This document shows positions 10,761-22,031 of a DNA stretch of 23,081 nucleotides, piece after piece. Location of the stretch: the IMG/VR virus record IMGVR_UViG_2711768067_000018; one strand, written 5' to 3'. The position numbers were made by a program, and so were the translations under genes. The notes beneath the pieces are model-generated. The model saw only the letters and a program-made list of their open reading frames with translations. It made no database searches and had not been told where the DNA came from. This DNA is from a virus (Duplodnaviria > Heunggongvirae > Uroviricota > Caudoviricetes). The first letter of the stretch is position 1, and each line of letters begins with the position of its first letter.

Positions 10761-12533
10761 ATGACCATCACCACAGACACCACTCTTTTACACGACCCGC
10801 GTCGTCAGGCGGCGCTGCTGTACTGGCAGGGATTTTCCGTGCCGCAGATTGCCGCCATGTTGCAGATGAAACGCCCGACGGTGCAGAGCTGGAAGCAGCG
10901 CGACGGCTGGGACAGCGTTGCCCCCATCAGCCGTGTCGAAATGAGTCTGGAAGCGCGGCTGACCCAGCTCATCATCAAACCGCAGAAAACCGGCGGTGAC
11001 TTCAAGGAAATTGACCTGCTCGGACGCCAGATTGAACGACTGGCACGGGTCAACCGTTACAGTCAGACCGGCAACGAGGCAGACCTTAATCCGAACGTCG
11101 CTAACCGCAACAAAGGCGGGCGTCGCAAACCGAAAAAGAATTTTTTCAGTGACGAGGCCATCGAAAAGCTGGAGCAGATTTTCTTTGAGCAGTCTTTCGA
11201 ATATCAGTTGCACTGGTATCGCGCCGGGCTTGAGCACCGCATCCGCGATATCCTGAAATCCCGCCAGATTGGCGCGACGTTTTATTTTTCCCGCGAGGCG
11301 CTGCTGCGCGCCCTGAAAACCGGTCATAACCAGATTTTTCTGTCGGCCAGTAAAACGCAGGCGTATGTGTTCCGCGAATACATCATCGCCTTTGCCCGGC
11401 TGGTTGACGTTGACCTGACCGGTGACCCGATTGCCCTGGGCAATAACGGCGCAAAACTGATTTTTCTCGGCACCAACTCCAACACCGCACAGAGCCATAA
11501 CGGCGACCTGTACGTCGACGAGATTTTCTGGATCCCGAATTTTCAGGTACTGCGTAAGGTGGCATCAGGTATGGCCTCACAGAGTCACCTGCGCTCGACC
11601 TATTTCTCCACCCCGTCCACGCTGGCGCACGACGCCTACCCGTTCTGGTCGGGGGAGCTGTTTAACCGGGGACGCGCCAGCGCCGCTGAACGCGTGGAAA
11701 TCGACGTCAGTCATAACGCCCTTGCCGGTGGGCTTCTCTGTGCGGACGGCCAGTGGCGGCAGATTGTCACCATTGAGGACGCGCTGAAAGGCGGCTGCAC
11801 GCTGTTCGACATTGAGCAGCTCAAACGTGAAAACAGCGCCGACGATTTTAAAAACCTGTTCATGTGTGAATTTGTTGACGACAAGGCGTCGGTGTTCCCG
11901 TTCGAGGAGCTGCAACGCTGCATGGTCGACACGCTGGAAGAATGGGAAGACTATGCGCCGTTTGCCGCCAATCCGTTCGGCTCCCGCCCGGTATGGATTG
12001 GTTACGACCCGTCACACCGTGGCGACAGCGCCGGATGCGTGGTACTGGCACCGCCGGTGGTGGCCGGTGGCAAATTCAGAATACTTGAGCGTCACCAGTG
12101 GAAAGGCATGGACTTTGCCACTCAGGCTGAATCCATCCGCAAACTCACTGAAAAATACAACGTCGAATACATCGGAATTGATGCCACCGGCCTCGGTGTC
12201 GGCGTGTTCCAGCTCGTGCGCTCGTTCTATCCCGCCGCGCGCGATATCCGCTACACGCCGGAAATGAAAACCGCAATGGTGCTCAAGGCCAAAGACGTCA
12301 TCCGCCGTGGCTGTCTGGAATATGACGTCAGCGCCACCGACATCACCAGCTCGTTTATGGCTATCCGCAAGACCATGACCAGCAGCGGACGCAGCGCCAC
12401 GTATGAGGCCAGCCGCAGCGAGGAAGCCAGCCACGCCGACCTCGCCTGGGCGACCATGCACGCCCTGTTAAATGAGCCACTCACCGCCGGTATCAGCACC
12501 CCGCTGACATCCACCATTCTGGAGTTTTACTGA
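10761..12533 (+). CDS. P: Terminase ATPase (large) subunit P
   Basis: Start at ATG 10761 (MTITTDTT...), preceded by GCGAGGT; 590 aa, the size of P2 gpP. The ORF-track start at 10731 is a TTG with no RBS. Transcribed divergently from O as in P2. Confidence 0.9.
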   Translation: MTITTDTTLLHDPRRQAALLYWQGFSVPQIAAMLQMKRPTVQSWKQRDGWDSVAPISRVEMSLEARLTQLIIKPQKTGGDFKEIDLLGRQIERLARVNRYSQTGNEADLNPNVANRNKGGRRKPKKNFFSDEAIEKLEQIFFEQSFEYQLHWYRAGLEHRIRDILKSRQIGATFYFSREALLRALKTGHNQIFLSASKTQAYVFREYIIAFARLVDVDLTGDPIALGNNGAKLIFLGTNSNTAQSHNGDLYVDEIFWIPNFQVLRKVASGMASQSHLRSTYFSTPSTLAHDAYPFWSGELFNRGRASAAERVEIDVSHNALAGGLLCADGQWRQIVTIEDALKGGCTLFDIEQLKRENSADDFKNLFMCEFVDDKASVFPFEELQRCMVDTLEEWEDYAPFAANPFGSRPVWIGYDPSHRGDSAGCVVLAPPVVAGGKFRILERHQWKGMDFATQAESIRKLTEKYNVEYIGIDATGLGVGVFQLVRSFYPAARDIRYTPEMKTAMVLKAKDVIRRGCLEYDVSATDITSSFMAIRKTMTSSGRSATYEASRSEEASHADLAWATMHALLNEPLTAGISTPLTSTILEFY

Positions 12534-13567
12534 TGAGCAAGAAAAAAGGGAAAACACCGCAACCTGCGGCAAAAAAAATGACCGCCAGCGCCCCGAAAAT
12601 GGAAGCATTCACCTTTGGCGAGCCGGTACCGGTACTCGACCGCCGTGACATTCTGGATTACGTCGAGTGCATCAGTAACGGCAGATGGTATGAACCACCG
12701 GTCAGCTTTACCGGTCTGGCAAAAAGCCTGCGTGCTGCCGTGCATCACAGCTCACCGATTTACGTCAAACGTAATATTCTGGCCTCAACATTTATCCCGC
12801 ATCCGTGGCTTTCCCAGCAGGATTTCAGCCGCTTTGTGCTGGATTTTCTGGTGTTCGGTAATGCGTTTCTGGAAAAGCGTTACAGCACCACCGGTAAAGT
12901 TATCAGGCTGGAAACCTCACCGGCAAAATATACCCGCCGTGGTGTGGAAGAGGATGTTTACTGGTGGGTGCCGTCCTTCAACGAGCCGACACCTTTCGCG
13001 CCCGGCTCCGTGTTTCATCTGCTGGAGCCGGATATTAATCAGGAGCTGTACGGCCTGCCGGAATATCTCAGCGCCCTTAACTCTGCCTGGCTGAATGAGT
13101 CGGCCACGCTGTTCCGCCGCAAGTATTACGAAAACGGCGCACATGCCGGATACATCATGTACGTCACCGATGCCGTGCAGGATCGCAACGATATCGAAAT
13201 GCTTCGCGAAAACATGGTTAAGTCGAAAGGCCGCAACAACTTTAAAAATCTGTTTCTCTATGCCCCGCAGGGGAAAGCTGACGGCATTAAAATTATCCCG
13301 CTCAGTGAAGTGGCAACGAAGGACGATTTTTTTAATATCAAAAAAGCCAGCGCCGCTGACCTGCTGGACGCGCACCGCATCCCCTTTCAGTTGATGGGCG
13401 GCAAGCCGGAGAACGTCGGGTCACTGGGTGATATTGAGAAAGTGGCAAAGGTCTTTGTCCGCAATGAGCTTATCCCGTTACAGGACAGGATTCGGGAAAT
13501 AAACGGCTGGCTCGGTCAGGAGGTCATCCGCTTTAAAAACTACTCACTGGACACTGACAACGGCTGA
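12533..13567 (+). CDS. Q: Portal protein Q
   Basis: 344-aa ORF, the size of P2 gpQ; its ATG overlaps the P stop (TGATG). Confidence 0.9.
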   Translation: MSKKKGKTPQPAAKKMTASAPKMEAFTFGEPVPVLDRRDILDYVECISNGRWYEPPVSFTGLAKSLRAAVHHSSPIYVKRNILASTFIPHPWLSQQDFSRFVLDFLVFGNAFLEKRYSTTGKVIRLETSPAKYTRRGVEEDVYWWVPSFNEPTPFAPGSVFHLLEPDINQELYGLPEYLSALNSAWLNESATLFRRKYYENGAHAGYIMYVTDAVQDRNDIEMLRENMVKSKGRNNFKNLFLYAPQGKADGIKIIPLSEVATKDDFFNIKKASAADLLDAHRIPFQLMGGKPENVGSLGDIEKVAKVFVRNELIPLQDRIREINGWLGQEVIRFKNYSLDTDNG

Positions 13568-13993: not shown

Positions 13994-14935
13994 ATGCAAG
14001 GTAAAGTTGACGAACAGCAATCCAATGATATTGAAGCTGAGTTTGGATACTATCCAGTAGAAGTTAACGTTGAAACTGATGATTTTTCTTTACTTACTTT
14101 ACCCGGTCTAGCGGAAAAAACAAATCTTATAAACAATCACAGAAATGTTATTAACGGTTGGATATACCCAGGAAACCAAGAAGTATATAACCTCAATGGA
14201 GGCATATCCACAATGCCTTTTAGCCAACGAGTATTTGGCTTACCCAAAACACACTCACTAAAATTAAAAAATACATCTTCACTAGAAACTCTCAATTTTG
14301 CTGTGTGGTGTCTGTCTTTTTTCAAAGGGATAAGATTAACAACTACTGATGCCGGTTTTTTAGACGCAACCCCAATAAAACCCAGCAAATTAACTGACTT
14401 TATTCTGGTCAAGTGCTCTGAAAAAGAGGTTATAGAATTAGCACTCAAATACATGTCTAGCGAGACAAAAACCAAACTCGCACCAATAAATATAGCAGCA
14501 ATAGTGCATGCACTATTTTTATCCCAAAACCCACAATACCTTAGCTTCGAAAAATTCCAGTATCTTTATATGGCACTGGATAGTTGCTTTGCTTTAACAT
14601 GGGCAGAAAAGAACAAGTGTACAGAAAAGACTCTAAATCACTCCAGGCGCTTGAAGTGGATCTGCAAAACTTATGGAATACCACGACCATCATGGGTTAC
14701 AGGCAAAAAAAACATTACAAACATCCGCAATGAAAACTTTCATGAAGCTATGTTTCATGGTCAACCACTTGGCTTTACCACTATTAACAATTATCAATAT
14801 GGAGATGACATATTACAACAAATGCAGGCTTTAATTTGCCGATTACTCGTTGCGATTCTTGGTGTTAACGCCCCCGATTACATCACATCGAACGTGAACT
14901 CTCGTGAATATCATTCACTAACATTAAAAATATAA
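13994..14935 (+). CDS. Hypothetical cargo protein (313 aa) with HEPN-like R-N-x3-H motif; candidate abortive-infection RNase
   Basis: Uninterrupted AT-rich ORF with GGAG 6 nt upstream of the ATG; motif RNENFH at residues 245-250 (nt 14726-14743); composition clearly different from the phage core. Confidence 0.6.
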   Translation: MQGKVDEQQSNDIEAEFGYYPVEVNVETDDFSLLTLPGLAEKTNLINNHRNVINGWIYPGNQEVYNLNGGISTMPFSQRVFGLPKTHSLKLKNTSSLETLNFAVWCLSFFKGIRLTTTDAGFLDATPIKPSKLTDFILVKCSEKEVIELALKYMSSETKTKLAPINIAAIVHALFLSQNPQYLSFEKFQYLYMALDSCFALTWAEKNKCTEKTLNHSRRLKWICKTYGIPRPSWVTGKKNITNIRNENFHEAMFHGQPLGFTTINNYQYGDDILQQMQALICRLLVAILGVNAPDYITSNVNSREYHSLTLKI

Positions 14936-14950
14936 AACGACTAAAAATAC

Positions 14951-14975
14951 TCTCCAGTAACAATAAGTACTGGAG
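14951..14975. terminator. Hairpin between convergent cargo genes (likely terminator, mainly for the minus-strand transcript)
   Basis: TCTCCAGTA-N8-TACTGGAGA inverted repeat (9-bp stem); a T-rich tract follows on the minus strand (tattttta). Confidence 0.45.
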
Positions 14976-15017
14976 ATGTATTATCACTAAAACCAATAAA
15001 AAATCACAACTAATGCT

Positions 15018-15617
15018 TTACTTAGATAGTTTGTCTTTAATTATATTCAGAACACCAATTATTAATTCACTGATTGGCGTGGCCAACTCAATAGTATTAG
15101 ATGTCGACTTTGTTCTAAAGTCTTTATCTGTCGGGTGTTGAAATGCTGATTTAAGAAGAGTCAAAAGCAAAGTTAAACCCACACCAAGGATGAATGCAAC
15201 AATAGCTATTAGAGAACTGGCCGATAACCAATCGGTGGATAAACCAGAAATAGATTTTCTAACTTTATTAGTGTCTGAAGATGGTGTTATCCTCTCATCA
15301 GCCATCTTCGGATCCGAAGATAAAGCAGAACATTTTTCTGCTGAAACACAAGTTTGTGTATCTACTTTTTGTGTTATCGCTGCGGCAATACTGCTTTTCG
15401 CTTCCAGCAAGCCATTTCCAACAGCCAAAGCAAAGTTAAGCCCCTGCCATAGAAATGTACAAGCAAAACAAAGCACAACGGCAGAGAGCACTAATCGCAT
15501 ACTTCTACGCTCTATACCATCCCGTCTATCTCGCCTTATAAGGATATCAGGATCTAAATCGCCCTTAGGAGTGGTTCCTTGCTCTGGGGACTGTCCAGAT
15601 AAATCAATATCAGCCAT
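15018..15617 (-). CDS. Hypothetical two-transmembrane-segment protein (199 aa); candidate membrane effector
   Basis: Two hydrophobic stretches (about residues 42-68 and 144-166) flanking a hydrophilic region, charged N-terminus; AT-rich; downstream of and co-oriented with the ImmA-like gene. Confidence 0.65.
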   Translation of the reverse strand: MADIDLSGQSPEQGTTPKGDLDPDILIRRDRRDGIERRSMRLVLSAVVLCFACTFLWQGLNFALAVGNGLLEAKSSIAAAITQKVDTQTCVSAEKCSALSSDPKMADERITPSSDTNKVRKSISGLSTDWLSASSLIAIVAFILGVGLTLLLTLLKSAFQHPTDKDFRTKSTSNTIELATPISELIIGVLNIIKDKLSK

Positions 15618-15620
15618 AAA

Positions 15621-15658
15621 AAAATCACCCTTACATGTACAAACGTAAAGGTGATTTT
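15621..15658 (-). promoter_or_regulatory. Terminator-like hairpin with U-tract that overlaps the RBS of the membrane-protein gene
   Basis: 13 of 14 bp inverted repeat AAAATCACC(C)TTAC / GTAA(A)GGTGATTTT with a 10-nt loop; on the minus strand the 3' arm (containing the GGGTGA Shine-Dalgarno-like sequence) is followed by TTTTTTT and then the ATG at 15617. Confidence 0.5.
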
Positions 15659-15683
15659 AAACAGGTTAAAAGTTAAAGGCTAA

Positions 15684-16169
15684 TTAATAAGCCATTCCTA
15701 AGCTCTTTAAGCGCCAATGCATAGCGGCTTCTGATACATTAAAGATGCTTGCTAATCTCAAAGTGCTATCAATACCTTCTCTGGATACCAATTGACGTAT
15801 AGCAGACTCAGGCATTAACAACTCAGCAGCAAACTTGTTTGCTTCAACCTCACGGTAATCACGAGCACCTGTTGAATAATTCCCGACATTATCCCGATGG
15901 TACTCTCCGTCCTGGGTATGCCCCAGCACATGATGACCTAACTCGTGTGCAACAGTAAAACGTTGACGATTAGAATGTTCACTAGAATCAAAATAAATCC
16001 TATGGACACCCTTTTTGATGACAGCCAGACCGCTTAACCCATCGTTGTTATAAGCCGATTCCTCAAGTGCTTCAACACGAGCACCCCACGCTTTAGCAAG
16101 CTTAAACGGATCGACAGGTAGTCGGCGATCCCAATAGCGGTCAAGCAGTTTTTTAGCTGCATAGCTCAT
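15684..16169 (-). CDS. ImmA/IrrE-family zinc metallopeptidase (HEXXH)
   Basis: 161-aa ORF with HELGHHVLGH (HEXXH) and a downstream EANKFAAELLMP motif typical of ImmA/IrrE (COG2856-type) peptidases; AGGAGG 5 nt upstream of the ATG. Confidence 0.85.
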   Translation of the reverse strand: MSYAAKKLLDRYWDRRLPVDPFKLAKAWGARVEALEESAYNNDGLSGLAVIKKGVHRIYFDSSEHSNRQRFTVAHELGHHVLGHTQDGEYHRDNVGNYSTGARDYREVEANKFAAELLMPESAIRQLVSREGIDSTLRLASIFNVSEAAMHWRLKSLGMAY

Positions 16170-16205
16170 GGTTGCCTCCTACGTTAAAAAAGTTAAGTAT
16201 GCACA

Positions 16206-16234
16206 GCCATATCACAGTTGTTATTTTATGTCAA
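16206..16234 (-). promoter_or_regulatory. Candidate sigma70 promoter for the ImmA-like gene
   Basis: On the minus strand: TTGACA (16234-16229), 17-nt spacer, TGaTATGGC extended -10 (16211-16206), about 35 nt upstream of the start codon. Confidence 0.5.
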
Positions 16235-16890
16235 GGCTGTTTTTCAGCCATTACTATAACACTAATCCACGTTTTCCCATAACATTTTCGACATCATATA
16301 TGCATTCAGTTCTGCATATAGAGCTTATCTTTGCTGATAACACGAGATGAATACGCGCAACCAGCCCACGATTTATAAAAAACCTTATAAATCAGAATAT
16401 TGAGTTAAAAAAACACTAACTACTTGCGCAGCGAGTTGTTAAACCTCAGCGATACTAAAAGAAAATTTCAGAGTCACCGAAGTTTCCACAGAAAACGCAA
16501 CTTAATGATTTTATTGGAATTTATGTCGCTATTTTTAATTACTTGTTTAAATCCGCCATATTGAAACTGTGCATTTCTAGCCACTCACAACTTTAAAAAA
16601 TTTACATTGCTTTCAAGACCTTATCATCCGTAGTCTCTGCTTTTTACTTTGAGCTATATCAAAAAAAGCTCAAACATCCTTGATGCAAAACCAGTATTAC
16701 ACAACATAAAATGCAACCAGAAACAACGACATACTATATGTTGTGTTGTTCAGGTCCTCTGTTCGGTGATATGCCAGATCACTTTGCGTTTAAACAGAGC
16801 ATTATTTCAGGGCAAGACTTCGCTCAATAGTCACTCCGCCTTAGAAGCGCATATATCGGCGGAAATTGCCCTCTGCTTACAGGAGGCGAT

Positions 16891-17004
16891 ATGAAGAAGT
16901 GCTATTACTGCATTCTCGTTCTGGCCCTCTTTGGCTATCCATATGGTAGTCCGAGTGGTTTGTCAGTAAACGTCAGTAATATCCATGTAAGTATTTTTCT
17001 TTAG
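16891..17004 (+). CDS. Small hydrophobic ORF (37 codons), hypothetical
   Basis: AGGAGG with a 4-nt spacer before the ATG; translation MKKCYYCILVLALFGYPYGSPSGLSVNVSNIHVSIFL; followed immediately by a strong terminator. No homology evidence available. Confidence 0.3.
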   Translation: MKKCYYCILVLALFGYPYGSPSGLSVNVSNIHVSIFL

Positions 17005-17016
17005 TATGCTTCAAAC

Positions 17017-17047
17017 AAAAAAACCACCTGCCAGGGTGGTTTTTTTG
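17017..17047. terminator. Bidirectional rho-independent terminator
   Basis: AAAAAAACCACC-TGCCAG-GGTGGTTTTTTT: stem flanked by an A-tract on one side and a T-tract on the other; located between the small plus-strand ORF and the 3' end of minus-strand gene A. Confidence 0.65.
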
Positions 17048-17306
17048 CGCCCGTCATCAATCCGATGAAAGACTAGCAAGACTTCGCTCGAGATGAATTA
17101 TGCTTCGACATAAAGTCACTCGCAATGGTTTTATTAACCGAAATAGATGCTCTTTTATGACTCGAATCAAATAGCTGCCTTCAATTACATGCTAACGATT
17201 CAATACAATTTAGCCTTCTGATTCAACACGCTATTGCTCCTCATCTACCTTAGAGGTGTTTCGCATAATCCATTCAAAGACATATAAAATCACGCTGTAT
17301 TTTTAC

Positions 17307-19583
17307 TCAAATGGATAACAAAAATCCCGGCCAATCATCAGCGACCTGATAAGTGAAAGGTTTCCCGTCATAATTTACGGTCGCGCCACGCGCCAGCGCC
17401 TCAAGCTCCCATCGTTGCGGCCTGATACCGTTCTGAGCGAGATCAACGCGGATACGGGTAATTTGCAATCGTTCCGACCGGGTCAGTCTGGCCGATGGTG
17501 CAATTTCATGCGGTTTTAACGGGCTTCCGTTTCTTTGCTGACGGTTTGGCGTTCTCCGGTCGTGTTTTAATGCGCCCCTGAGCGCCCTCACGACCTCCGG
17601 GTCATTCCATTCGATAACATCGTCATCAACCAGATTAAGCACTGCTGCGGCGTGCTCAGAAGGTGTGGGAGCCGGTAACGAAGTATCACCACCGGTGAGC
17701 TTTCCACAGTTATTGACAGGACTCCGAGGCGCGGCGATGCCGCTTTTTAAAGTCAAAGGCTCAACGACCGGAACTTTCGGCACAATGCGCCAGTCCGTCG
17801 TTCTGGTGATATGAATATGACGCGCGCCGAGATGCGGCGCGTAAATGCCGACCACTCTCTCGACTTCTTCCTCGTACTCGTTAACGTCATCCGACAGACT
17901 ACGGGCGACTCTGACAGTCTGGCAATCGCGCGGAACATTTGCCCCGCCCTGCGCGCTGATATACAGCGCAAAATCACCACTGTCTGCGGCGGCGCGTGCA
18001 GCCTCGACGCGCTCGTCAAACTCATCAGCAATGCTGACGCCGCGAGGCAATTTGCGTAGTTCACGGTAAGCCCCCATTGTCGGCAGGCCAACCGTTTTAA
18101 ATTGCGGAATGCGCCACGTTGACGCCCATGCGGTAACAGCCGCTGCAGTGTCTTTCAACGGCCTGCCGGTGTCGTTATCGAGCTGACCATCCAGTGCATA
18201 GCCGTCGATGTTTTTTGAAATGTATTTCGCGATATATCCCGCAGCACCGCCCCGGTTAAGGTGTTTTGCCTGAAAACGGTTTCGCGCGGCTCCTCTTTCG
18301 TCGCCATCCTCTTTGAGCGCATAGCGACGCATGATTTCGATAATCTGGTTACGCTGGCGTGGATGACAAAAAAGCATCATATGCCAGTGCGGCGTTCCGT
18401 CGTGGTGTGGCTCGACGACTCGCAAACCGTAGACCTGTAAATCATTATCCTTGAATGCCGTGCGCATCAGGCTCCAGATACGGCAGAGATAACGCTGCGC
18501 ATCCTTTGGATTAAATGCCTCATCGTTCCAGCCGTGATTAAGCTGAACGGTTTTACTTTCGCCTTTTCCGACCTGACGTGTCGGGTGATACTTTGACGGC
18601 GCGGTCAGCGTGATAAACATCCCCACATCACCCTCTGCGGCGGCGTAACGCTCAATACCGGCAATGGTGTTCATCAGCTCCATCCGGCGAATTTCAGGAT
18701 TAGAAATACTGCCCATCACCTTACTGATAAGGTCGATGCGCTCGCCGGTTTCCCTGTTTTCAAGGTCACACGATTTAAGAAATTCCAGATTTGCCTGGCG
18801 GCGCGCACGCACATCACGAATGGCGTGTTTACTGGCATAAGGAGAACGGTCTTTATTGACCTCCCCGACAGCTATCAGTAACGCCTCATGCCAGCGCATA
18901 CGCTGGCCTTTAAGCTGATGAGTCCACCACTCATCGTTAAACAGGCGGGCAATGGCAGAATATGCCTGCCTCGTGGTCATCTGTCCTTTACGGTATTTTT
19001 TCCAGTAGAGCGGGGAAATATTGAAAGCACGTGCAGCGCCAGCAACATGACCATACAGGTGAGCCTGCGCCTCATCCGTAAACAGCGATTCTTTTTCACC
19101 ATGCGCATCAACCCATGCATCGCAGAGTTCCTCATACATCATGAAAAGCTGCGATGAGATACGGGCGGCAAACTTTTTCAGCTCCTTGTCATTCATTCCC
19201 GGCAGGCGCGCATAGTGGTCACGCTCTGCCAGAAACAGCAACGACGCGTCGGTGTTCATTTCATGGCGCTGATTCACACGCTCAATGCGCGGCCATAAAC
19301 GACGCTGAAAAGTAGATGTGAGGAAATAAAACCCGTGCACCGGGCTTTTATTGCGCCGGATGTAGTCATAGCGTGAAGTAAACAGCGAGCGCAAAAAGTA
19401 AGGCAGGCGGTTAATCGTGGATAAAACACCTTGCACCTGACGCATCTCGTCACGTGTAAGAGGTCTTTCGCGCCCGACAGCCTCGCGTGGCGCGTTCCAT
19501 GCATAAGCACCGGTAAACGCCTTACCGGTGCCTGCGGTAAATGCTGACGGAGGGACAAAACGCCCGGAGGCTTTAACGGCCAT
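17307..19583 (-). CDS. A: Replication initiation protein A (rolling-circle nickase)
   Basis: Long ORF in the P2 gpA position; start chosen at the ATG at 19583 (MAVKASGRF...), as the ORF-track start at 19625 is a TTG. About 758 aa, close to P2 gpA. Confidence 0.9.
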   Translation of the reverse strand: MAVKASGRFVPPSAFTAGTGKAFTGAYAWNAPREAVGRERPLTRDEMRQVQGVLSTINRLPYFLRSLFTSRYDYIRRNKSPVHGFYFLTSTFQRRLWPRIERVNQRHEMNTDASLLFLAERDHYARLPGMNDKELKKFAARISSQLFMMYEELCDAWVDAHGEKESLFTDEAQAHLYGHVAGAARAFNISPLYWKKYRKGQMTTRQAYSAIARLFNDEWWTHQLKGQRMRWHEALLIAVGEVNKDRSPYASKHAIRDVRARRQANLEFLKSCDLENRETGERIDLISKVMGSISNPEIRRMELMNTIAGIERYAAAEGDVGMFITLTAPSKYHPTRQVGKGESKTVQLNHGWNDEAFNPKDAQRYLCRIWSLMRTAFKDNDLQVYGLRVVEPHHDGTPHWHMMLFCHPRQRNQIIEIMRRYALKEDGDERGAARNRFQAKHLNRGGAAGYIAKYISKNIDGYALDGQLDNDTGRPLKDTAAAVTAWASTWRIPQFKTVGLPTMGAYRELRKLPRGVSIADEFDERVEAARAAADSGDFALYISAQGGANVPRDCQTVRVARSLSDDVNEYEEEVERVVGIYAPHLGARHIHITRTTDWRIVPKVPVVEPLTLKSGIAAPRSPVNNCGKLTGGDTSLPAPTPSEHAAAVLNLVDDDVIEWNDPEVVRALRGALKHDRRTPNRQQRNGSPLKPHEIAPSARLTRSERLQITRIRVDLAQNGIRPQRWELEALARGATVNYDGKPFTYQVADDWPGFLLSI

Positions 19584-19848
19584 ATGAGCCAAAAGCCTCT
19601 GAACAACGCTTGCTGAGTTGCTCAACCTGCGCGTTTAAATCAGCAAAAGATTTTGCGCTTCCGGTCAGAATATCGTGATGCATCAGGCCGGAAACGAGCT
19701 GGCCTAATTTCGGGTAATAACCAACCACCGCCAGCCATTCCTGACCGGCGTTTTTACCGCTTTCCGCTCTCTTTTTCTCGTGGAGAATAAACTGAAAGCT
19801 GTCACTGGTAACGACATAACGTTCGCCAATTTCAATACGAATACTCAT
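19573..19848 (-). CDS. Small early protein (P2 orf83-like), hypothetical
   Basis: 91-aa ORF; its start overlaps the upstream ORF stop and its end overlaps the A start, part of the B-A operon. Confidence 0.7.
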   Translation of the reverse strand: MSIRIEIGERYVVTSDSFQFILHEKKRAESGKNAGQEWLAVVGYYPKLGQLVSGLMHHDILTGSAKSFADLNAQVEQLSKRCSEAFGSYGR

Positions 19849-21737: not shown

Positions 21738-22031
21738 ATGAAATTAAGCGAAAAGATTAAGGCCTTGCGTGAGGCTGAAGGGCTAAGCCAATCAAAATTC
21801 TGTGAAATCATAGAGTTACCGCTAAGCACACTTAAAAAATATGAAGGAGGAAACTTTGAACCCGGTGGCACAGCTTTGCTAAAAATCACTATGCATCCCA
21901 CATTCCAAAAATATGCTCTATGGCTTATGACAGATAAAACCGCGCCGGACGCAGGACAAATCGCACCGGCTCTCGCGCACATTGGGCCAGAGTCAACAGA
22001 GTCCAACCACTCCGCGAAAAGGATTGGCTAA
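21738..22031 (+). CDS. C: Immunity repressor C (HTH)
   Basis: 97-aa ORF with a helix-turn-helix-like segment (LSQSKFCEIIELPLSTLKKYE) and a GQIAPALAH C-terminal region resembling P2 C; located between cox and int. Confidence 0.8.
   Translation: MKLSEKIKALREAEGLSQSKFCEIIELPLSTLKKYEGGNFEPGGTALLKITMHPTFQKYALWLMTDKTAPDAGQIAPALAHIGPESTESNHSAKRIG

Follow-up and report, generated by a model that had tools for sequence, protein, structure and literature searches.

A stand-alone M78 peptidase gene paired with a two-transmembrane protein gene in the cargo hotspot of a P2-like prophage

The 23,081-nt stretch of DNA analyzed here (IMG/VR record IMGVR_UViG_2711768067_000018; hereafter the window) is a P2-like (Peduovirus) prophage. 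Between its portal gene Q (12533-13567, plus strand) and the gene for the 772-amino-acid (aa) replication endonuclease A (17307-19625, minus strand), an arrangement that RefSeq also annotates in Escherichia coli TST3, lies the A/Q cargo hotspot, which is a known and validated defence hotspot of P2 (Rousset 2022, PMC9122126). Within this interval we find a cassette of two genes on the minus strand. The upstream gene encodes a zinc peptidase of the ImmA/IrrE type and the downstream gene a small inner-membrane protein with two transmembrane (2TM) helices. Listed in the direction of transcription, its features are:

16206..16234, minus strand: putative sigma-70 promoter, with the -35 hexamer TTGACA at 16234-16229, a 17-nt spacer ending in TG, and the -10 hexamer TATGGC at 16211-16206.
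16175..16180, minus strand: Shine-Dalgarno sequence AGGAGG, 5 nt before the ATG of the peptidase gene.
15684..16169, minus strand: M78 (ImmA/IrrE-type) zinc peptidase of 161 aa, with a catalytic domain and a C-terminal helical subdomain resembling a helix-turn-helix (HTH).
15618..15658, minus strand: intergenic terminator- or attenuator-like hairpin with a stem of about 16 bp and a tract of seven U residues (U7) that runs straight into the AUG of the 2TM gene.
15018..15617, minus strand: 2TM inner-membrane protein of 199 aa with two hydrophobic helices, directly downstream of the peptidase gene.
14951..14976, either strand: bidirectional terminator-like hairpin that closes both the cassette and a convergent gene for a 313-aa protein.

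Profile, motif and fold all place the 161-aa protein in peptidase family M78. It matches the Pfam family Peptidase_M78 (PF06114, IrrE N-terminal-like) with an E-value of 3.8e-21 and 75.6 bits, against a gathering cutoff of 22, and the metallo-protease family PHROG 87 with 1.4e-32. The best PADLOC profile is capP (1e-30), of which only positions 8-153 of 242 are covered; 16 RmrA profiles also match (best 6e-17), but only over the C-terminal M78 part of RmrA (approximately positions 146-290 of 357-400). The zinc site HExxH...E takes the form HELGH, and its residues H75, E76 and H79 together with E107 are invariant in an alignment of 37 homologues, which points to an intact active site. An AlphaFold model built on this alignment has a mean predicted local distance difference test (pLDDT) score of 86. 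The top solved structures in a Foldseek search are CapP from Thauera (7t5t) and IrrE/PprI from Deinococcus, with a probability of 1.0 to 7t5t, 3dti and 8sln and a TM-score, normalized to the length of the query, of approximately 0.6. The size of the open reading frame (ORF), the profile match, the zinc motif and the fold all agree with an earlier, sequence-only reading of this DNA, which had described a stand-alone ImmA/IrrE-type peptidase.

The peptidase is compact compared with its structural targets, which comprise 240-280 residues. It ends at residue 161, after the helical HTH-like subdomain, and has no GAF domain. It also lacks an N-terminal XRE HTH, with no match to HTH_3 in Pfam, and contains no cysteine. 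In CapP and IrrE, the C-terminal GAF domain and the peptidase domain form a groove that binds single-stranded DNA (PMC13228613). Since the GAF domain is missing, such a groove cannot exist in the 161-aa protein, and a cysteine switch of the CapP type is impossible because there is no cysteine. With neither element present, the peptidase has no recognizable sensor. A disordered loop of the model, residues 93-102, sits at the position of the autoinhibitory switch loop of CapP.

No HTH gene adjoins the peptidase gene. We listed all ORFs of at least 25 aa on both strands of 16170-17306 and scanned ten of them against Pfam at permissive thresholds. Only two ORFs in this interval reach 60 aa (60 and 81 aa, both on the plus strand) and neither has a Pfam match; eight further ORFs of 27-46 aa show no HTH match at E<=5. 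A hidden small HTH ORF is unlikely: neither the window nor the upstream sequence read at three distant loci revealed one. A non-coding RNA upstream of the peptidase gene was considered as well and set aside, since a search of Rfam at E<=1 returned sub-threshold matches at chance level and no family at its gathering score.

The product of the second gene has both termini in the cytoplasm according to the positive-inside rule, a predicted topology in which they would be reachable by a soluble peptidase. In alignments, the N-terminus carries a short motif, (I/V)DLSGxxP, on a disordered proline-rich tail of very variable length, and a basic stretch leads into the first transmembrane helix (TM1). 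The variable loop between the helices contains two cysteines in enterobacterial members. The second helix (TM2, AFILGVGLTLxLTLLK) is invariant from Escherichia to Vibrio and Acinetobacter while the remainder of the protein diverges, apart from a conserved amphipathic helix at the C-terminus, ATPLSELI...K.KFSK. The AlphaFold model is helical at residues 23-88, 116-159 and 175-198, with a pLDDT of 62 and a linker of low confidence (residues 164-179) ahead of the C-terminal helix. A Foldseek search of the PDB with this model gave nothing with E<1, a result to which the low confidence of the model allows little weight. The protein has no match in Pfam (E<=0.1), PADLOC or NCBIfam, including SLATT and other known 2TM effector families, and none of the RmrT profiles match it. 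It falls in PHROG 8096, a family without annotated function.

The two genes evolve at different rates. Between close relatives, the nonsynonymous rate (dN) is 0.08-0.10 for the peptidase and 0.32-0.40, four to five times higher, for the 2TM protein, in which the putatively periplasmic loop is the fastest-evolving part (approximately 0.5-0.6). Because the synonymous rate (dS) is saturated, dN can be read only in relative terms. The low values of the peptidase indicate strong purifying selection on it.

Distant homologues of the 2TM protein and distant homologues of the peptidase led us to contigs with 15 loci, which we checked by hand and on which our statements on co-occurrence rest. In every one (15/15), a gene for an M78 peptidase of 158-170 aa is followed by a gene for a two-transmembrane protein of 130-260 aa; the gene order is fixed, with the peptidase first. 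The loci come from Escherichia, Serratia, Klebsiella, Kluyvera, Enterobacter, Vibrio, Aeromonas, Acinetobacter, Pseudomonas, Cupriavidus and Desulfovibrio, and the elements that carry them include P2-, Mu-, HP1- and lambda-like prophages, a satellite and plasmids. Among them are:

L002, Escherichia coli P2DC1: pair present.
L005, Serratia chromosomal island: pair adjoining a RosmerTA-like pair.
L007, Vibrio harveyi element: recombinases on its flanks.
L009, Acinetobacter element with a DUF927-family (primase-like) gene: probably a satellite.
L010, Pseudomonas aeruginosa lambdoid prophage: pair immediately after a CI/S24 repressor.
L013, Aeromonas: Mu-like prophage.
L015 and L039, Klebsiella and Kluyvera: ends of HP1/P2-like prophages.
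L026 and L027: two IMG/VR contigs.
L036 and L038: a Desulfovibrio locus and a Cupriavidus locus.
L042 and L043: two plasmids (Enterobacter, Vibrio).

None of the 15 loci has an adjacent HTH gene. Their strict synteny shows the membrane protein, and not an HTH repressor, to be the functional partner of the peptidase. On mobile elements the two genes form an obligate unit, with frequent transfers among phages, satellites and plasmids. These comparisons bear on the substrates that the sequence-only reading had put forward. Its observation that no HTH substrate gene lies next to the peptidase gene holds up, and a conventional HTH gene immediately alongside, which would have made the locus an ordinary regulatory pair, was not found. 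Of its candidates, the downstream membrane protein is favoured by the comparative data. A very small HTH ORF is disfavoured by the searches described above. The P2 C repressor of the prophage is an unlikely target because the pair also occurs on elements, and in non-phage contexts, that carry unrelated repressors or none.

The family is rare. A profile search of 1.84 billion representative proteins with the 2TM protein gave 58 clusters of 49-273 aa without fused domains; among the longer homologues, apparent fusions of peptidase and transmembrane segments proved to be merely mis-called N-termini. The family is represented in 3 of 50,697 phage records and 3 of 72,556 plasmids. In a census of species-representative genomes, the pattern matches of a first scan were not confirmed by tblastn, and a second scan gave eight matches, mostly in unrelated phyla and probably due to chance.

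Several loci show individual features. On the Serratia island, which lies between phn genes and nrdG-nrdD, the adjoining RosmerTA-like pair (L005/L006, 7463-9246) consists of a 223-aa protein and a 371-aa protein with HTH_3 and Peptidase_M78 domains, so that two different M78-based modules stand side by side. Outside the window, the neighbours of the cassette thus include these RosmerTA-like genes, and also a zeta toxin and an HNH endonuclease; the Desulfovibrio locus is chromosomal and has no obvious mobile-element neighbours. In prophages of P. aeruginosa (L010-L012, 2507-4434), the pair is immediately downstream of a CI-type (Peptidase_S24) repressor gene on the same strand. This position, like that of rexAB in lambda, suggests expression during lysogeny. 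The repressor gene serves the immunity of the prophage itself, and the other loci do not share this arrangement. On the two plasmids, a hypothetical gene for a protein of approximately 305 aa lies about 45 nt downstream of the cassette on the same strand (L042, 4485-5399; L043, 4486-5406). The two products share 79% identity and show no relation to the 313-aa protein of the window; the gene may be a third component in that lineage or separate cargo. In Salmonella Infantis (L041, CP148870, 2501-3651), a 1-nt deletion in a GGGG run shifts the reading frame of the peptidase gene just after HELGHHVL and leaves the 2TM gene intact. This may be a homopolymer sequencing error or a natural knockout of the peptidase that the cell tolerates.

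The putative promoter lies 36 nt upstream of the peptidase ATG. The sequence-only reading had ascribed to this gene a perfect -35, an extended -10, a strong ribosome-binding site and, overall, a near-consensus promoter. TTGACA is indeed found at 16234-16229 and AGGAGG at 16180-16175, 5 nt 5' of the ATG. The TG that defines an extended -10 is also in place, but the hexamer behind it, TATGGC, agrees with the consensus at just 3/6 positions. With a total of 9/12 plus TG, and given that a sigma-70 consensus scan of the region did not list the site, "near-consensus" overstates the case. Promoter-like sites are not in excess in this region either (6 found, 6.7 expected). The site is nevertheless plausible as a promoter, given its position, its counterpart at the same place in the 84%-identical relative L002 (TTGACG-17-TAAGGC with TG), and the stretch of approximately 120 nt before the peptidase ATG, which is conserved in L026 and L027, two relatives at a greater distance. 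The Serratia locus L005 shares the string AACGTAGGAGGCAACCATG of the Shine-Dalgarno region.

The two genes are separated by 66 nt, which fold into a hairpin of -23.3 kcal/mol (z=-5.1; 0/200 shuffled sequences are equally stable). The 3' arm of its stem contains GGUGAU, the sole Shine-Dalgarno-like sequence for the 2TM gene. The promoter and terminator scan overlooked this hairpin and a second one at 17020-17047, the two strongest terminator-like hairpins of the region, both of which are clear on folding; the silence of the scan is thus not evidence that a terminator is absent there. A stem and a U-tract, with the AUG within one nucleotide of the latter, are present at 9 of the 13 loci checked, with three unrelated classes of stem: AAUCACC.../...GGUGAUU, AAGCCACC.../...GGUGGCUU and AAGCCCUC.../...GAGGGCUU. 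Because the stem sequences are unrelated, it is the structure that is conserved and not the sequence. A hairpin with a U-tract at the start codon should keep expression of the 2TM protein well below that of the peptidase. We infer that most transcripts would end after the peptidase gene and that read-through transcripts would be poorly translated for the 2TM protein, so that the peptidase would greatly outnumber it. A terminator and a sequestered Shine-Dalgarno sequence in front of the 2TM gene are consistent with toxicity of its product, and only consistent with it.

The cassette has been recorded before. Rousset et al. (2022, PMC9122126) list it in their Table S5B as P2-hotspot system #21, "Peptidase_M78", with 148 occurrences, annotated "2 TM in protein 2" and without a mechanism. 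Protein 1 of this system is identical to the peptidase of the window, and protein 2 is its 2TM protein, with an annotated start at an internal Met; system #21 therefore does not differ in kind from the cassette described here. A homologue from E. coli TA280 was cloned with its native upstream region as pFR104, "Peptidase + TM", and is listed in Table S2B of the same work among the "additional tested systems"; Table S2A, which gives the "validated defense systems", does not include it (PMC9122126). The first 59 nt of the pFR104 insert are identical to L002, and the plasmid carries the L002-type allele, whose peptidase is 88% and whose 2TM protein is 59% identical to those of the window. In the literature, we found no characterized system of an M78 peptidase and a transmembrane protein beyond Rousset 2022, and no later paper that characterizes the pair. 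The cassette is thus already catalogued and was tested once without a phenotype; its unusual feature is the conserved pairing of peptidase and 2TM protein with a terminator gate, not a missing gene.

The cargo between A and Q is made up of separable modules: the gene for the 313-aa protein, the peptidase cassette (approximately 14951-16545), and the stretch 16546-17306. Phage P2 itself carries tin and old in this hotspot. Of 5,426 complete E. coli genomes, 46 have the full 3.4-kb arrangement, which one Salmonella phage also carries. We considered whether the whole ORF-poor upstream stretch of 1.1 kb belongs to the cassette and rejected this, since 16546-17306 is a separate module that occurs without the peptidase in the P2 remnant of E. 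coli 11PC; in comparison with L002, it is approximately 97% conserved and the cassette approximately 84%.

The 313-aa ORF (13994-14935, plus strand) is convergent with the cassette. It has no match in Pfam, PADLOC or NCBIfam and belongs to PHROG 5937, which has no annotated function. It occurs without the cassette in Yersinia and other P2-like phages and in P2-EC67, and is listed as a single-gene system, #11, with 218 occurrences in Table S5B of Rousset 2022 (PMC9122126). It was therefore rejected as a third component of the cassette and is probably independent single-gene cargo. The stretch 16593-16760 (plus strand) is a phage-borne copy of the region upstream of E. coli nrdD. Approximately 97 nt of it match the treC-nrdD intergenic region of all 5,426 E. 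coli genomes with 83-86% identity, and it retains what we take to be an FNR-like box, TTGAGCTATATCAA, and a sequence resembling an NrdR box, ACATACTATATGTTGTGT. The copy points to a hydrophobic 37-aa ORF (16891-17004, plus strand; MKKCYYCILVLALFGYPYG...) with an AGGAGG Shine-Dalgarno sequence, which is followed at approximately 17020-17047 by a strong bidirectional terminator, a hairpin with an A-tract, stem and U-tract. The nrdD-like block is approximately 97% conserved in P2DC1 and is also present in the P2 remnant without the peptidase cassette.

Comparison with characterized systems places the peptidase near several of them. The best matches in sequence and fold are the CapP/CapH and IrrE(PprI)/DdrO systems, which share with it the HExxH...E zinc site and, behind the catalytic domain, a helical subdomain of HTH-like form. 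However, the protein is not a CapP, since it comes without a GAF domain, CapH or a regulated operon; the differences from CapP and IrrE extend to the cysteine of the switch, the adjacent HTH substrate and the regulated downstream immune operon, all of which are absent here. ImmA of ICEBs1 and phage phi105 is similar in size (approximately 160-170 aa), in being a single-domain-class M78 protein and in residing on mobile elements. It is defined, however, by an adjacent ImmR repressor as substrate and by a role in induction. No such neighbouring gene exists in the window or at the 15 loci, and without a repressor partner the peptidase is not an ImmA in the ImmR/ImmA sense. The RexA/RexB pair of lambda, a cytosolic protein and a small polytopic membrane protein expressed from a prophage, offers an analogy only, including the position after cI that is seen in P. 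aeruginosa. RexA is not a peptidase, RexB has four transmembrane helices, and neither is related to the cassette in sequence or fold.

A further parallel is RosmerTA, which is reportedly composed of a toxin, RmrT, and an antitoxin, RmrA (work ascribed to Millman in 2022). Like the cassette, it is a two-gene module on mobile elements and in defence islands that combines an M78/ImmA-type domain with a variable non-HTH partner. In RmrA, an N-terminal XRE HTH is fused to the M78 domain; the peptidase of the window lacks this HTH and is therefore not an RmrA, although by analogy it may work like one. The cassette further differs in its 2TM protein, which RmrT profiles do not match, in its fixed order with the peptidase first, and in the terminator hairpin between its genes. 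The ImmA-type domain (D25) is an established antitoxin hub, with RosmerTA-like systems that contain diverse toxins (Ernits 2023, PMC10440598).

That ImmA-type domains are combined as antitoxins with many toxins leads us to favour, with a probability of roughly 0.4, a Rosmer-like toxin-antitoxin or abortive-infection/exclusion module that has lost its HTH. The mechanism would be as follows. The cassette would be a self-contained accessory unit of a cytosolic M78 zinc peptidase and a small 2TM inner-membrane protein, in which the latter would be the dangerous component, a membrane-acting effector that assembles in the membrane through its invariant second helix. The terminator hairpin, which also sequesters the ribosome-binding site, would keep synthesis of the effector low, and the peptidase, which a good promoter and a strong Shine-Dalgarno sequence would supply in excess, would restrain it by binding or cleaving a cytoplasmic segment. 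This segment would be either the tail with the DLSG motif at the N-terminus or the linker that precedes the amphipathic helix at the C-terminus. Infection would disturb the balance between the two, whereupon the effector would damage the membrane or block the incoming phage.

Some of our observations weigh against such a module. By its listing in Table S2B, pFR104 gave no validated defence against eight coliphages. The intergenic hairpin is absent where the genes are only 5-30 nt apart, in Acinetobacter, Pseudomonas, Desulfovibrio and Cupriavidus. A stably folded enzyme is not an obviously labile antitoxin, and the low-confidence 2TM model (pLDDT 62) resembles no known pore-former. The frameshift in Salmonella Infantis, if real, is weak evidence against an indispensable antitoxin, although the cell could tolerate it if the terminator kept the effector harmless.

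The sequence-only reading had raised the idea of a protease-gated effector, which we retain as one reading among several; the expression design fits a neutralizing peptidase at least equally well. In its gasdermin-like form, the peptidase would sense infection and cut an autoinhibitory segment of the 2TM protein, leading to oligomerization and depolarization. This draws on the same synteny as the Rosmer-like module, and the relatives CapP, IrrE and ImmA are signal-activated peptidases that each cut a single specific partner (PMC13228613). The disordered loop at the place of the CapP switch loop would fit such activation, and the conserved terminal motif on its disordered tether and the linker at residues 164-179 are candidate cleavage regions. 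We nonetheless regard it as doubtful, because a peptidase without GAF domain or cysteine has no recognizable sensor and because the expression design is the reverse of known cases, with a protease that is apparently abundant and an effector that is attenuated; we favour the view that this design suits restraint better than a protease-activated pore. Alternatively, the 2TM protein could serve superinfection exclusion by anchoring or recruiting the peptidase through its N-terminal motif, with a phage ejection or tape-measure protein, or a host membrane protein for DNA entry, as the substrate. The DLSG motif at the end of a variable, disordered tail resembles a docking peptide more than a regulatory cleavage site, the fastest-evolving loop behaves as expected of a surface in contact with phage, and the prophage cargo (moron) positions, including the one after the CI-type repressor in P. 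aeruginosa, are typical of exclusion genes. An anchor, however, would have no need of attenuation by a terminator, an invariant TM2 suggests that the protein acts inside the membrane, and no exclusion was reported for pFR104, so that we consider this role improbable.

A role outside phage defence, such as lysogenic conversion, membrane homeostasis or an addiction cassette that only stabilizes its carrier element, would account for the negative test with eight phages, for the Desulfovibrio locus without obvious mobile-element neighbours and for the rarity of the family. It seems quite unlikely to us in view of the location in a validated P2 defence hotspot, the company of RosmerTA-like, zeta toxin and HNH endonuclease genes, and the frequent transfer between phages, satellites and plasmids. 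The idea that the peptidase is an ImmA-type anti-repressor acting in trans on P2 C or on the repressors of other resident elements, with the 2TM protein as an unrelated neighbour, is highly improbable. Trans-acting ImmA-like anti-repressors exist in Listeria, the peptidase belongs to the ImmA/IrrE/CapP fold family, and a C-type repressor ORF is present in the window at 21738-22031, approximately 5.5 kb away. Against this stand the strict pairing with the 2TM protein across elements with unrelated repressors or none, including plasmids and the chromosomal locus of Desulfovibrio, and the organization of both genes in one transcription unit with a conserved intergenic hairpin.

As a speculation with little probability on its side, the cassette might represent a new class of membrane-toxin system in which a stand-alone zinc peptidase, as antitoxin or activator, gates a pore-forming 2TM protein while a terminator on the start codon gates its synthesis; antitermination by a phage, or loss of the peptidase, would then bring about membrane collapse.

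M78/ImmA-type peptidases are understood almost entirely as enzymes that cleave HTH repressors (ImmR, DdrO, CapH) or as the HTH-fused antitoxin of RosmerTA. The peptidases of the cassette form a conserved lineage without DNA-binding partners, tied firmly to a small membrane protein in which one transmembrane helix is invariant, and spread over Gamma- and Betaproteobacteria and Desulfovibrio by phages, satellites and plasmids, and the conserved terminator on the start codon of its partner is a simple expression gate. If the peptidase does cleave or neutralize the 2TM protein, the pair would offer a compact two-gene model (161 and 199 aa) for the control of a membrane effector by a peptidase, and the substrate logic of M78 enzymes would widen from transcriptional switches to the direct control of membrane effectors.

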